Origin: a virus
Direction: 5' to 3' (one strand)
UHGV virus genome: UHGV-0110227
DNA: 25,293 nucleotides
The notes under the pieces were generated by a model, which saw nothing but the letters and a program-made list of their open reading frames with translations, had not been told where the DNA came from and did not search any database. The position numbers and the translations under genes were made by a program. Shown here piece after piece: positions 5,563 to 13,936 of the stretch (position 1 is its first letter; the number at the start of each line of letters is the position of its first letter).

Positions 5563-5588
5563 GCCTGCTGGTAATCGCAGGCTTTTTT
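5563..5588 (+). terminator. Intrinsic terminator after the helicase gene (tR2-like position)
   Basis: GCCTGC-tggtaatc-GCAGGC followed by TTTTTT, between the helicase and ninB. Confidence 0.8.
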
Positions 5589-9637: not shown

Positions 9638-9961
9638 ATGAAGATGCCAGAAAAAAATGACCTGTTAGCCGCCATTCTCGCGGCAAAGGAACAAGGCATC
9701 GGGGCAATCCTTGCGTTTGCAATGGCGTACCTTCGCGGCAGATATAATGGCGGTGCGTTTACAAAAACAGTAATCGACGCAACGATGTGCGCCATTATCG
9801 CCTGGTTCATTCGTGACCTTCTCGACTTCGCCGGACTAAGTAGCAATCTCGCTTATATAACGAGCGTGTTCATCGGCTACATCGGTACTGACTCGATTGG
9901 TTCGCTTATCAAACGCTTCGCTGCTAAAAAAGCCGGAGTAGAAGATGGTGGAAATCAATAA
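9638..9961 (+). CDS. S: Holin S (class I, dual-start; the Met3 start at 9644 gives the S105-type holin)
   Basis: 107 aa. Translation [83 protein letters not shown]... matches lambda S; three transmembrane segments. Confidence 0.95.
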
Positions 9962-10421
9962 TCAACGTAAGGCGTTCCTCGATATGCTGGCGTGGTCAGA
10001 GGGAACTGATAACGGACGGCAGAAAACCAGAAATCATGGTTATGACGTCATTGTTGGCGGAGAGCTATTTACTGATTACTCCGATCACCCTCGCAAACTT
10101 GTCACGCTAAACCCCAAACTCAAATCAACAGCCGCCGGACGTTACCAGCTTCTTTCCCGTTGGTGGGATGCCTATCGTAAGCAGCTTGGCCTGAAAGACT
10201 TCTCTCCCAAAAGCCAGGACGCTGTTGCGCTGCAGCAGATTAAGGAACGTGGCGCTTTGCCGATGATTGATCGCGGTGATATCCGTCAGGCAATCGACCG
10301 TTGCAGCAATATTTGGGCTTCATTGCCCGGTGCTGGCTACGGTCAGTATGAACACAAGATCGATAGTCTGATTGCCAAATTCAAAGAAGCTGGCGGGGTG
10401 GTTAATGAAACTTCGCTATAA
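9945..10421 (+). CDS. R: Endolysin R (lytic transglycosylase, lambda-type)
   Basis: 158 aa. Translation [57 protein letters not shown]... matches lambda R. Start overlaps the S 3' end. Confidence 0.95.
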
Positions 10422-10866: not shown

Positions 10867-10897
10867 TTTTTTTGCAAATCACAAAGTCCATTTAATG

Positions 10898-10921
10898 AGC
10901 CTCGCGATGCGGGGCTTTTTT
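10898..10921 (+). terminator. Candidate intrinsic terminator after the lysis cassette (imperfect stem plus T6)
   Basis: AGCCTCGCGATGCGGGGCT followed by TTTTTT. The stem contains a bulge. Confidence 0.4.
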
Positions 10922-11068
10922 ATGTCCGCAGTAAACGCGCTTCACACGCGCGACTTATGAACACAGAACCTTTCAGGATGACCCTTGAGGATGCCGGTTT
11001 GGTAATCGGTGCCTTTCTGTGGGCCGGAATCCTGTGTGACAAGGTTCATCACTAAAAGGTAATTACCG

Positions 11069-11611
11069 ATGAATTATCCAACTATCGTTGACGGCATTGA
11101 TTTCAAAGAACTGGTTTTTATTACCAACAATGACCCTGTCACCGATTCATTTATGGTGGCGAAAGCATTTCGTAAGCGACATGACAACGTTGTGCGTGAT
11201 GTAGAAAGAACTATCGCTGCTTGTCCTGAAGAGTTTGATACAAAACTCAATTTTGAGGTTTGCTATAAAAACAATGAGTTACAGAATGGTAAGCCACAAA
11301 AATTCTATCGGCTACGTAAGGATGGGTTGATGCTTTTGGTTATGTCCTACACCAAAAAAGAAGCAATGCGTATCAAAATTGCTTACATCAACGCATTCAA
11401 CTGGATGTACGCCATGCTTCAGGTTGGTCATCGTCAATTTGAAGAAGAGAGAAATGCCGTAATGCTGGAGTACATGAAAGAGAAGGATGTTGCCAGCATG
11501 TCAGGCCGTCTGCTTAATCGCTGGGGAAAAATTAAGAAGCCTCAGCTACTGGCGAGAATTGAACGCCTTGAACAGCACGGGCAAACCGTAATCCCCGGAC
11601 TCACCAATTAA
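11069..11611 (+). CDS. Rha-family phage regulatory protein (N-terminal Rha domain)
   Basis: 180 aa. N-terminal motif VAKAFRKRHDNVVRDVERTI and a downstream YRLRKDGLMLLVMSYTKKEAMRIKIAYINAFN segment resemble the Rha family signature as I recall it. Confidence 0.65.
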   Translation: MNYPTIVDGIDFKELVFITNNDPVTDSFMVAKAFRKRHDNVVRDVERTIAACPEEFDTKLNFEVCYKNNELQNGKPQKFYRLRKDGLMLLVMSYTKKEAMRIKIAYINAFNWMYAMLQVGHRQFEEERNAVMLEYMKEKDVASMSGRLLNRWGKIKKPQLLARIERLEQHGQTVIPGLTN

Positions 11612-11746
11612 CGGCAGTACAGCGAAACAACCCAAGCCAGTAAGTGGGGAAATAACACTGGCAGCCACTGAAAGATGAACCTCCAGCCTTATGGCAAAAA
11701 AGATTCTTTGTGGTGACGGACTGATGGAAAGACATCGGTTATTGCA

Positions 11747-11769
11747 GAGACCACTCAATGAGTGGTCTC
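11747..11769. repeat. Perfect 10-bp inverted repeat GAGACCACTC-aat-GAGTGGTCTC
   Basis: Exact palindromic arms with a 3-nt loop in the intergenic region upstream of the packaging genes. No T-run follows. Confidence 0.6.
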
Positions 11770-11791
11770 GACAATGGCTTATACCCTACAC

Positions 11792-11817
11792 GGGATAACT
11801 TAACTGATATCCCTTTT
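11792..11817 (+). repeat. Hairpin GGGATA-(10 nt)-TATCCC followed by TTTT
   Basis: 6-bp stem and a short T-run, 21 nt upstream of the ATG at 11839. Weak terminator-like or regulatory stem-loop. Confidence 0.35.
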
Positions 11818-11838
11818 AACGGATAAACGGAGCCAACA

Positions 11839-12081
11839 ATGGCAGAGATTATTCCCATGACTGAAGAACAGAAATTCCAGTTAGAGATTTACAAACTGGT
11901 CATGAACCAGAACGCAGCCGCAGAAGAAGCATTTCAATTCATTGGCACTGACGAACTGAAGCTTGAGCTATTCAAAATTCACTTCCAGTCAGGTGGCGCT
12001 AATTCAGATATCACGACCCGAACTATCGAAGCGGTGCGTAAATCGAAGGAAGCGTTAGACCTGTTCACTACCGGAGCATAA
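11839..12081 (+). CDS. Hypothetical protein (80 aa) immediately upstream of, and coupled to, the small terminase gene
   Basis: ATG at 11839 with GGAG SD. Stop TAA sits 2 nt before the TerS ATG. No family recognised. Confidence 0.6.
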   Translation: MAEIIPMTEEQKFQLEIYKLVMNQNAAAEEAFQFIGTDELKLELFKIHFQSGGANSDITTRTIEAVRKSKEALDLFTTGA

Positions 12082-12083
12082 AC

Positions 12084-12524
12084 ATGGCGCGCCCAACAAA
12101 GTATCAAGAGGCGTATGCCGAACAGGCGCGCAAACTGTGCTTGCTGGGCTACACCGATGCAGAGCTTGCTGATTTCTTCGAAGTCAGTGAGTCAACTATT
12201 AACAAGTGGAAGCTTGATTATCCTGAGTTTTCGGAGTCCATAAAAAAGGGTAAGGCCGTTGCTGATGCAGAAGTTAGTGATCGTCTTTATCAACGCGCTA
12301 TGGGCTTCGTGGCTCCAGACATCGATATTCGTGTTATTGAAAACAGAATTGTCGAAACTCCGCTTGAGAAGTATTACCCGCCTGATACAACCGCCGCCAT
12401 CTTCTGGCTTAAGAACCGACAGAAGGATAAATGGCGCGACAAGGTTGATCACGAACTAACAGGCAAAGACGGCGGCGCAATTCAGATTGAAACATCACCG
12501 ATGAGCACTCTATTCGGAAAATGA
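12084..12524 (+). CDS. Terminase small subunit (P22/Sf6-type C-terminal region, divergent N-terminal DNA-recognition domain)
   Basis: 146 aa. N-terminal HTH-like LGYTDAELADFFEVSESTINKW. C-terminal ELTGKDGGAIQIETSPMSTLFGK resembles the Sf6 small terminase tail as I recall it. Translationally coupled to TerL (ATGA overlap). Confidence 0.85.
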   Translation: MARPTKYQEAYAEQARKLCLLGYTDAELADFFEVSESTINKWKLDYPEFSESIKKGKAVADAEVSDRLYQRAMGFVAPDIDIRVIENRIVETPLEKYYPPDTTAAIFWLKNRQKDKWRDKVDHELTGKDGGAIQIETSPMSTLFGK

Positions 12525-13936
12525 CCTCGATTAATCCTATCTTTGAACCGTTCATTGAGGCGCATCGCTACAAAGTCGCCAAAGGCGGTCGAGGTAGCGG
12601 CAAATCATGGGCAATTGCGAGGCTGCTTGTTGAAGCGGCGCGTCGGCAGCCTGTGCGTATTCTCTGCGCTCGTGAACTGCAAAACAGTATCAGCGATTCG
12701 GTAATCCGGTTGCTTGAAGACACCATTGAGCGGGAAGGGTATTCGGCTGAGTTTGAAATTCAGCGTTCCATGATTCGTCATCTCGGAACGAATGCTGAAT
12801 TCATGTTCTACGGCATAAAAAACAACCCGACGAAGATTAAATCGCTCGAAGGCATTGATATCTGCTGGGTGGAAGAAGCGGAAGCGGTAACGAAGGAATC
12901 ATGGGACATCCTGATACCAACCATCCGCAAGCCGTTTTCCGAAATATGGGTGAGCTTTAACCCGAAGAACATACTCGACGATACCTATCAGCGATTCGTC
13001 GTAAATCCTCCCGATGATATTTGTCTGCTGACAGTGAACTACACCGACAACCCGCATTTTCCTGAAGTTCTCCGTCTGGAGATGGAAGAGTGTAAACGCA
13101 GAAATCCGACACTGTATCGTCACATCTGGCTTGGTGAGCCAGTGAGCGCAAGTGATATGGCAATCATCAAACGTGAATGGCTTGAAGCCGCAACCGATGC
13201 GCACAAGAAACTCGGATGGAAAGCGAAAGGCGCTGTTGTTTCTGCACATGACCCGTCAGATACAGGGCCGGATGCTAAAGGTTATGCATCGCGTCACGGT
13301 TCGGTAGTTAAGCGCATTGCCGAAGGTCTGCTGATGGACATCAACGAGGGGGCTGACTGGGCTACTTCGCTGGCGATTGAAGACGGTGCTGACCACTACT
13401 TGTGGGATGGTGATGGTGTCGGTGCAGGGCTACGCAGACAGACAACGGAAGCGTTCTCCGGTAAGAAAATCACCGCCACGATGTTCAAGGGCAGCGAATC
13501 GCCATTTGATGAAGATGCACCATATCAGGCTGGAGCATGGGCTGATGAAGTCGTGCAGGGCGACAACGTTCGCACTATTGGCGATGTATTCCGCAATAAG
13601 CGAGCGCAATTCTATTACGCGCTGGCTGACAGGCTGTATCTGACATATCGGGCGGTTGTTCACGGTGAGTATGCAGACCCAGACGACATGCTGAGTTTCG
13701 ACAAAGAAGCGATAGGCGAGAAGATGCTGGAGAAGCTGTTTGCAGAACTGACGCAGATTCAGCGCAAATTCAATAATAACGGGAAGCTGGAGCTTATGAC
13801 TAAGGTCGAAATGAAGCAGAAGCTCGGTATTCCATCTCCTAACCTGGCTGATGCGCTGATGATGTGTATGCATTGCCCGGAGTCGGCTGCGCAACCCGAC
13901 TATTCCAGTTACTCAATTCCTTGTGGTGTAGGTTGA
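12521..13936 (+). CDS. Terminase large subunit (ATPase/nuclease)
   Basis: 471 aa. Walker A KGGRGSGKS near the N-terminus and a Walker B-like ICWVEEAE. Position between TerS and portal. Confidence 0.93.
   Translation: MTSINPIFEPFIEAHRYKVAKGGRGSGKSWAIARLLVEAARRQPVRILCARELQNSISDSVIRLLEDTIEREGYSAEFEIQRSMIRHLGTNAEFMFYGIKNNPTKIKSLEGIDICWVEEAEAVTKESWDILIPTIRKPFSEIWVSFNPKNILDDTYQRFVVNPPDDICLLTVNYTDNPHFPEVLRLEMEECKRRNPTLYRHIWLGEPVSASDMAIIKREWLEAATDAHKKLGWKAKGAVVSAHDPSDTGPDAKGYASRHGSVVKRIAEGLLMDINEGADWATSLAIEDGADHYLWDGDGVGAGLRRQTTEAFSGKKITATMFKGSESPFDEDAPYQAGAWADEVVQGDNVRTIGDVFRNKRAQFYYALADRLYLTYRAVVHGEYADPDDMLSFDKEAIGEKMLEKLFAELTQIQRKFNNNGKLELMTKVEMKQKLGIPSPNLADALMMCMHCPESAAQPDYSSYSIPCGVG

Follow-up and report, generated by a model that had tools for sequence, protein, structure and literature searches.

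The virus genome UHGV-0110227 represents a P22-like phage (Lederbergvirus) that is related to CUS-3, Sf101 and HK620. The window denotes the whole stretch of this DNA that was analysed here (25,293 nt, 25.3 kb). Between an accessory Rha-like gene and the genes of DUF2560 (orf80), TerS and TerL, the window contains an intergenic space of 227 nt that accommodates two stem-loops, hairpin 1 and hairpin 2. The hairpin region is 98.5% identical to CUS-3 and Sf101 and ~98% identical to HK620. Hairpin 1 belongs to a strand-specific, covarying family of stem-loops that reside at intercistronic positions of late operons, often abut stop codons and bracket variable genes. The present study describes the anatomy of hairpin 1, its variation among homologous copies and its possible function.

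All genes in the neighbourhood of the hairpins are located on the + strand. A first-pass annotation, made from the letters of the DNA, had named the neighbours as a Rha-like gene, an 80-aa gene, TerS and TerL, and all four assignments are confirmed by matches to PF09669 and PF10549, DUF2560, phrog_309 and Terminase_3, respectively. The features of the locus are as follows.

9638-9961, + strand: holin
9945-10421, + strand: endolysin
to 10866, + strand: Rz/Rz1
10897-10923, + strand: canonical rho-independent terminator after Rz, called by the terminator scan
11069-11611, + strand: Rha-like gene, an accessory 'moron' (PF09669 and PF10549, phrog_518)
11612-11838: intergenic space, 227 nt
11603-11737, + strand: non-coding leader of the 'type A' hairpin 1, conserved with type A throughout
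11738-11744, + strand: 5' half of the basal stem of hairpin 1 (GTTATTG), pairs with 11772-11778 in the RNA fold and the covariance-model match
11745-11746, + strand: 5' side of the internal loop (CA), invariant in 33 and in 68 distinct variants
11747-11756, + strand: 5' arm of the apical stem, GAGACCACTC, left half of the dyad
11757-11759, + strand: apical loop (AAT)
11760-11769, + strand: 3' arm of the apical stem, GAGTGGTCTC, right half of the dyad
11770-11771, + strand: 3' side of the internal loop (GA), invariant in every aligned variant
11772-11778, + strand: 3' half of the basal stem (CAATGGC), from the RNA fold and the covariance-model match
11779-11791, + strand: linker TTATACCCTACAC between hairpins 1 and 2, conserved together with the two-hairpin block
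11792-11817, + strand: hairpin 2, with GGGATA (11792-11797), a 10-nt loop (11798-11807), TATCCC (11808-11813) and TTTT (11814-11817)
11829-11832, + strand: Shine-Dalgarno sequence GGAG of the DUF2560 gene, 6 nt before the ATG at 11839
11839-12081, + strand: DUF2560 gene, 80 aa (PF10834, E = 1e-43)
12084-12524, + strand: TerS (phrog_309)
12521-13936, + strand: TerL (Terminase_3)
from 13938, + strand: portal

Anatomy of the two hairpins

Hairpin 1 was initially noticed as a 23-bp dyad, in which GAGACCACTC (11747-11756) and GAGTGGTCTC (11760-11769) flank an AAT spacer (11757-11759). The sequences and coordinates that the first-pass annotation gave for both hairpins are exact, including the distance of 21 nt between the end of the TTTT of hairpin 2 and the ATG at 11839. 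However, the dyad is only the upper part of a longer stem-loop of 41 nt, which extends over 11738-11778 according to the covariance-model match. Hairpin 1 consists of a 7-bp basal stem, a 2x2 CA/GA internal loop, a 10-bp apical stem and an AAT triloop. The apical stem is G+C-rich, with six G-C pairs in 10 bp, and the 37-nt segment 11740-11776 folds with a free energy of -20.8 kcal/mol (z = -7.3).

The dyad is the one perfect 10-bp inverted repeat with a 3-8-nt loop in the window. Dinucleotide shuffles contain a mean of 0.16 such repeats, and 13% of the shuffles contain at least one. Further copies of the dyad, for which a search had been suggested, are found in the window neither by sequence nor by covariance-model searches, and the dyad is single-copy there. 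No U-rich tract follows the apical stem (which is followed by GACAATGG) or the basal stem (followed by TTATACCC), and the terminator scan did not call hairpin 1, in agreement with the earlier view that the dyad has no T-run and is not a canonical terminator.

The 3' basal stem always holds an ATG, both in the window (11772-11800) and in its homologues. In the window, this ATG opens a mini-open reading frame (mini-ORF) of nine codons, MAYTLHGIT, which stops at a TAA in the loop of hairpin 2 and is not preceded by a ribosome-binding site; another frame of this stretch gives TGA-TAA(-TGA). The ATG was rejected as a start codon, given that it opens ORFs of only 3-30 codons.

Hairpin 2 folds with a free energy of -8.3 kcal/mol (z = -4.1). 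Hairpins with a perfect 6-bp stem, a 3-12-nt loop and TTTT occur three times in the window, compared with 0.3 expected from shuffles; the other two are located at 5563 and 18399. Across 31 distinct versions of hairpin 2, no compensatory changes are found. Its 5' arm never varies, and its 3' arm displays five variant states, of which two are G.U, two are A.C and one is G.A. No segment of the hairpin varies more than the T-run, in place of which some phages have AACAA or CACAA. Furthermore, hairpin 2 is absent from ST64T and from a Citrobacter prophage (L090), whose loci contain TTATCCC instead of the linker TTATACCCTACAC. The terminator scan did not call hairpin 2 either; its 10-nt loop and its tail TTTTAACG, which contains 4 T, depart from the loop of 3-8 nt and the minimum of 5 U in the 8 nt after the stem that are expected of a rho-independent terminator. 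Hairpin 2 appears to be an optional, lineage-specific add-on without structural support and at most a weak terminator, one that would be read through by Q-modified polymerase. The first-pass annotation had treated it as a functional partner of the dyad, a view to which the lack of compensatory changes, the absence from two loci and the variable T-run lend no support.

Variation of hairpin 1 among homologous copies

Homologous copies of hairpin 1 were gathered from IMG/VR and reference phages using the downstream sequence anchor GAYAATGGCTTATACC. Among 189 such copies, GAGACCACTC is seen in the window copy only, which is the sole perfect copy of this version. Nearly all close relatives contain GAGACCATTC, GAGGCCATTC or GAGGTCATTC in the 5' apical arm, and the apical arms of P22 are GGGGTCATTC and GAGTGGCCTC. 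In these relatives, every difference in one arm either produces a + strand G.U wobble or is balanced by a change in the other arm. Thus, of the expectation that the dyad is conserved in related phages, one half holds and the other does not: the helix is kept, but the palindrome is lost. The palindrome of the window owes its perfection to one C, at a position where T is found in nearly all relatives of this version, and this perfection has no demonstrated meaning.

The same architecture is found with other apical helices. The helix reads AAAGCCAYTC-CCTACA-GAGTGGCTTT in type B, AAGCCYATC-TACK-GGTGGGCTT in type C and AAGCGTCTC-TACT-GGGGCGCTT in the Citrobacter prophage. The apical loop is 3-6 nt long and differs between types (AAT, CCTACA and TACG/TACT). 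Covariation extends to the basal stem, where columns 7 and 38 form AU, GC or GU and columns 2-3 read UG or CG. In the 3' basal stem, AAT is invariant and the first base is C or T, which gives a G-C or a G.U pair with G11744.

Pairing in hairpin 1 is preserved well above the level of controls. In 33 distinct variants, standard pairs occupy 97.6% of the pair cells, compared with 31-54% when the partner is slid by 1-3 columns. Double changes are observed at five pairs (51 cells), and the covariation score is 0.379 versus 0.238 in shuffles, a value that none of 500 shuffles reached. The substitutions are also asymmetric between strands. G.U cells outnumber A.C cells by 80 to 7, and 97.6% of the cells are paired on the + strand versus 84.4% on the - strand; counted as distinct position-states, 10 G.U are found versus 3 A.C (p = 0.046). 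In an extended set of 68 distinct sequences, double changes occur at 11 of 16 pairs and 95.1% of the cells are paired, a percentage that is inflated by the pairing filter used to gather this alignment (A2). In one subgroup of the extended set, the two outermost pairs are not kept.

A structure-blind scan of IMG/VR, which required only the conserved base CCATTACA-N21-26-GATAATG, yielded 98 distinct inner segments. At least eight consecutive pairs from the base are formed by 35 of these segments (106 copies), although only ~0.04 are expected by chance. The helices of the 35 segments include mutually dissimilar ones, such as GAGCCATCT/AGATGGCTC, GGGCATCAC/GTGGTGCTC, AAGGGCGGT/ACTGCCCTT and GAGGCTGTT/AGCAGCTTC. 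The other 63 segments form no helix and are probably chance matches. Ten representative variants share one common folded architecture with free energies of -17.7 to -25.8 kcal/mol.

Judged from these alignments, three traits define the family. The base, (G)YCAUUACA ... GAUAAUG(GC), is conserved in sequence and forms 5-7 pairs; in the window version, it reads GUUAUUGCA ... GACAAUGGC. The 2x2 CA/GA internal loop is invariant. The apical helix of 9-10 bp is free in sequence provided that pairing holds, and it is closed by a loop of 3-6 nt. Members of the family are imperfect palindromes of 37-44 nt that are intercistronic and located on the gene strand.

Position, neighbours and distribution of the family

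Hairpin 1 is strictly oriented. It is found on the gene strand in all 119 copies from loci that could be oriented by the DUF2560 gene, and the copies are co-oriented in 69 of 69 multi-copy loci, with one to three copies per phage. Of 80 distinct upstream contexts, 31 contain an ORF of 50 codons or more whose stop codon lies 0-2 nt ahead of the hairpin. In 25 of those 31, the stop codon (mostly TAG) overlaps the basal stem by one base, its final base being the initial base of the stem. These stop-abutting contexts comprise about a dozen unrelated upstream ORFs, as judged by eye. GTAG precedes several copies, in at least eight contexts that look independent by eye, and most GTAG occurrences represent a TAG stop preceded by G. 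On the downstream side, the distance from the hairpin to the next ribosome-binding site or start codon ranges from 15 to ~260 nt. Such a variable downstream distance suggests that the hairpin is a 3'-side part of the upstream cistron.

The genes that follow the block of hairpins 1 and 2 differ between phages. The block is followed by the DUF2560 gene in some phages, with the motif ACGGAGCCAACAATG kept 5' of orf80 in relatives. In others, it precedes an ORF with an HNH-type motif or an ORF resembling a different TerS (both candidates by look), and in still others ~500 nt of cos-type non-coding DNA separate it from a Nu1-like gene. In HK97, a truncated DUF2560 start is located between the block and the HNH gene. 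The block is common to pac-type P22-like phages and cos-type phages (HK97, mEp460, Stx2 phage 1717 and an EDL933 prophage), and copies of hairpin 1 are present at further intercistronic sites too. The first-pass annotation had suggested control of packaging gene expression from the position of the hairpins. Because the same block precedes unrelated genes or a cos region, the element does not appear to be tied to packaging genes or to represent a packaging operator.

The element is concentrated in the cassette-rich junction between the lysis and head genes. Relatives that retain hairpin 1 may have the Rha gene replaced or deleted, and in Rha-less relatives (L211, L117 and L105) a strong terminator precedes hairpin 1 by a few bases. 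Because a similarly placed terminator directly abuts hairpin 1 in the Rha-less phages, accessory genes seem to be inserted recurrently into the slot between the two. ST64T and HK97 contain two copies of hairpin 1, 154-155 nt apart, around a remnant of the Rha gene, and L105 contains three copies around small inserted genes. In L105 (IMG/VR 2740892117_000010, minus strand, 1234-1858), the three copies are of three types and lie within ~620 nt, and a terminator-plus-hairpin pair is found twice, on either side of a small gene of ~75 aa.

Where the upstream gene differs (epsilon34, HK620, HK97 and ST64T), homology of the leader starts at window positions 11589-11603. The leader of ~130 nt stays with the type A hairpin 1 even when Rha is replaced (by GIY-YIG, in epsilon34) or deleted (HK97 and ST64T). 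A small hairpin within the leader, CUGAUG-GAAAGA-CAUCGG (11721-11738), has GGA at the edge of its loop. P22 has the pid gene inserted directly after the block, and a block of the P22 type is also present in BTP1 of S. Typhimurium D23580. A poly-G run is located between the P22-type hairpin 2 and the pid terminator, and its length varies among records, with ~16-17 G in phage P6 (L002, 2764-2785), 9 in an IMG/VR contig (L099) and 10 in a published P22 primer (PMC8835761). This variation could reflect a sequencing artefact or a slippery tract.

The family is widespread in Escherichia coli. Of 5,426 complete E. coli genomes, 2,540 (47%) match a 104-nt query, with 1-5 places in each, and all of these places are consistent with prophages. 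No annotated feature was ever found under the matches in these RefSeq genomes. Hairpin 1 is absent from positions 45000-48502 of lambda (the right 3.5 kb) and from the K-12 prophages DLP12 and Qin. A genome-collection scan with the DUF2560 protein gave seven loci, one of which, from Citrobacter, was informative. In Rfam 15, neither the window nor seven related loci have a match at the gathering score, and at E <= 10 nothing within 11500-11950 overlaps either hairpin; the best match there, Proteo-phage-1 (11631-11666), reaches 16.8 bits at a gathering score of 42 (E = 1.5). A full-text literature search with sequence strings of the block returned no papers, and the papers on the P22 pid locus map pid transcripts and leave the hairpins unmentioned. 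The record of phage Ayreon labels hairpin 1 'terminator', and most phage records leave the element unannotated. From its sequences and positions, the element appears to be a previously unannotated intercistronic mRNA hairpin family. What is new here is a covarying element that is present in prophages of about half of the complete E. coli genomes and absent from Rfam, and the phages that bear it include the model phages P22, HK97, HK620, Sf6 and Stx2 phages.

Proposed role of hairpin 1 and competing explanations

What is the biological function of hairpin 1? We propose, at about even chances, that in lambdoid phages and their temperate enterobacterial relatives it is a cis-acting intercistronic element of the late mRNA. 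Transcription of the late operon of lambdoid phages starts at PR' and is subject to Q antitermination, and the annotation of epsilon34 places PR' and qut upstream of the homologous lysis genes. Hairpin 1 would act as RNA within such a Q-antiterminated late transcript and would serve the upstream cistron of this polycistronic mRNA in cis, from its 3' side. It may function as a barrier to 3' exonucleases, as an RNase III-type processing signal or as both. In addition, its abutment on the stop codon could influence the translation termination of the upstream gene. The conserved island of 40-100 bp, which is flanked by variable genes, probably has a second use as a homology patch through which accessory genes (Rha, KilA-N, GIY-YIG and pid) come and go. 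The element marks the place at which accessory genes, including the host-modifying pid, enter and exit the late operon, and an understanding of it could explain both the balance of lysis, accessory and head gene expression on one 20-kb mRNA and the exchange of cassettes between phages.

This proposal draws on several known systems. R1.1-type sites of T7 consist of an apical helix of ~10 bp, an internal loop and a basal helix, and after their cleavage the upstream mRNA retains a protective hairpin at its 3' end. An RNase III-type role is suggested for hairpin 1 because its 10-bp apical helix, internal loop and basal helix resemble these intercistronic sites of T7. Like them, hairpin 1 is a co-oriented stem-loop between genes of a long phage mRNA with conservation around the internal loop. 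Unlike them, it has a shorter helix, belongs to another phage lineage with a Q-antiterminated host polymerase and displays no sequence relationship to the T7 sites. A second parallel is provided by the repetitive extragenic palindromes (REPs) of enterobacteria. REPs stabilise upstream mRNA, and Liang, Rudd and Deutscher reportedly found in 2015 that REPs within ~15 nt of a stop codon lower the translation of the upstream gene. An effect of hairpin 1 on upstream translation termination is suggested because it abuts the stop codon, as do REPs near stops. The two elements share the properties of imperfect palindromes of 35-45 nt that are transcribed, repeated and intergenic in operons. However, the hairpin family is restricted to phage and prophage DNA, occurs in 1-5 copies per genome rather than in hundreds and has a different consensus; to our knowledge, it has no link to a RAYT transposase.

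Two further systems resemble hairpin 1 in their location. The terminators of morons and other intra-operon terminators are comparable in that hairpin 1 sits after accessory genes within a lambdoid late operon, but hairpin 1 differs from them in lacking a U-tract and in having a conserved base and internal loop that are common to unrelated upstream genes. The PeSL elements of T4-type phages combine a working sigma-70 promoter with terminator-acting stem-loops and mediate the shuffling of accessory genes (PMC2839356). Like PeSLs, hairpin 1 is a conserved intergenic stem-loop that begins at the upstream stop and flanks variable accessory genes. In contrast to PeSLs, the hairpin family has no promoter or U-tract, and its promoter-like hexamers are 22-26 bp apart. 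PeSL cassettes would be the closest precedent for the role as a homology patch.

Several observations weigh against an mRNA element of this kind. The mechanism is inferred from anatomy. RNase III accommodates ~22 bp (PMC6212723), whereas the helix of hairpin 1 is shorter, with 17 bp and a 2x2 loop amounting to 19 stacked positions. The window copy itself is located away from a stop codon, given that the Rha stop is 126 nt upstream. The strand asymmetry is modestly significant when counted as events (p = 0.046), and folded single-stranded DNA also tolerates G.T pairs. Furthermore, many copies come from recent relatives, so that the cell counts overstate the number of independent events, and the pairing filter flatters the extended alignment.

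Hairpins 1 and 2 and the upstream terminator could instead form a terminator or insulator array that stops non-Q-modified transcripts, for instance from accessory genes or from spurious initiation in the prophage, and keeps the head genes silent until Q acts. Such an array would be consistent with the three hairpins in a row in Rha-less relatives, the 'terminator' label in the Ayreon record, the AAAA before and TTTGATAAT after the G+C-rich core of type B, and the TTTT after hairpin 2. Late-operon terminators with roles that are not understood have been noted for P22-like phages, which provides a precedent for terminators inside these operons (PMC8022706). We nevertheless regard an array as unlikely, since the window copy and most other types have no U-tract after the apical or basal stem, the scan called neither hairpin, and the invariant CA/GA loop and conserved base are not terminator features; hairpin 2, moreover, has a loop of 10 nt and just 4 T in its most variable segment. 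Alternatively, the element could function exclusively as DNA, either as a linker or hot spot, like PeSLs, for recombination between phage modules or as a strand-specific folded-DNA site. In all types, the 5' edge of the hairpin is precisely where upstream homology ends, the copies bracket inserted or deleted genes, and PeSLs are a precedent (PMC2839356). The C/T polymorphism in the 3' basal stem, which is common to types and makes a few A.C mismatches, also looks like the outcome of internal crossovers. However, homology needs no helix, and yet the apical helix survives complete sequence turnover. The strict co-orientation and stop-codon abutment point to expression, and no dedicated recombinase travels with the element. 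A role restricted to DNA is rather improbable on these grounds, although a DNA-junction role is compatible with the proposed mRNA element as a second role. A similarly improbable idea is that the stem-loop is a recognition module for a trans-acting factor, comprising the conserved base (UAG)CCAUUACA...GAUAAUGG, the invariant CA/GA loop and a free apical helix. Such a module might be a site for an RNA-binding protein or nuclease, of host or phage origin, that couples the end of translation of the upstream cistron to late-mRNA processing, or a strand-specific folded-DNA recombination site, similar to integron attC or REP-RAYT, that mobilises cassettes of accessory genes among lambdoid phages.

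The remaining explanations concern the dyad as a DNA operator, a gene or a promoter. The first-pass annotation viewed the dyad as a protein recognition site or a processing hairpin. A processing hairpin fits in kind, but the lost symmetry, the G.U pairs and the co-orientation lend no support to a DNA site. The region between Rha and the packaging genes, in which no sigma-70-like promoter or terminator was called, does contain a perfect inverted repeat (10 bp, with a spacer of 3 bp) that resembles an operator through which a dimeric regulator, such as the Rha-like protein, would control the 80-aa/TerS/TerL unit. Such an operator is nonetheless highly improbable: the dyad is single-copy in the window, its arm sequences turn over completely while pairing is kept, the element is strictly oriented, and it is present without Rha and without these packaging genes. 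There is scarcely any likelihood that the dyad is part of a real small gene. An ORF of 35 codons (11691-11798) does span the dyad, its last 24 codons are annotated in Sf101 (gp64, 24 aa; L001, 2665-2739), and the annotated orf118 of ST64T (L214, 1457-1813) starts there. However, this ORF is interrupted in P22 by an in-frame stop (CGA TAA) and differs there by non-synonymous changes, and types B-E lack its ATG and upstream sequence altogether. The orf118 of ST64T results from an in-frame fusion of the small ORF with a DUF2560 homologue, which arises because hairpin 2 is missing there, and the real gene of ST64T is the DUF2560 homologue from L214 position 1572. Sf101 gp64 and ST64T orf118 are probably annotation artefacts rather than genes. 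Equally little can be said for a promoter in which ATTACA and GATAAT at the hairpin base would serve as the -35 and -10 boxes, with the stem-loop between them as in PeSLs. Although GATAAT is a good -10 box, ATTACA matches TTGACA at 4/6 positions and both are nearly invariant, the spacer of 22-26 bp is variable and outside the sigma-70 range of 16-19 bp, the promoter scan found none, and the window version reads ATTGCA/GACAAT. A promoter is, like a small gene, extremely unlikely.

A few other candidates were considered and rejected. Read-through or bypassing at the abutting stop is not compatible with the family, as there is no consistent downstream frame and type B meets a TGA inside the element. 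The prophage small RNAs (sRNAs) of enterohaemorrhagic E. coli are located between PR' and the lysis genes rather than at the site of the element. Likewise, sRNA-17 of the mEp460 prophage (PMC7719688; L167, 1211-1231) is unrelated and lies ~13 kb from the block in the sole locus that contains both. The longest inverted repeat of the whole window is found at its very start (13-60), with 22-nt arms that are 82% complementary and 4 nt apart.

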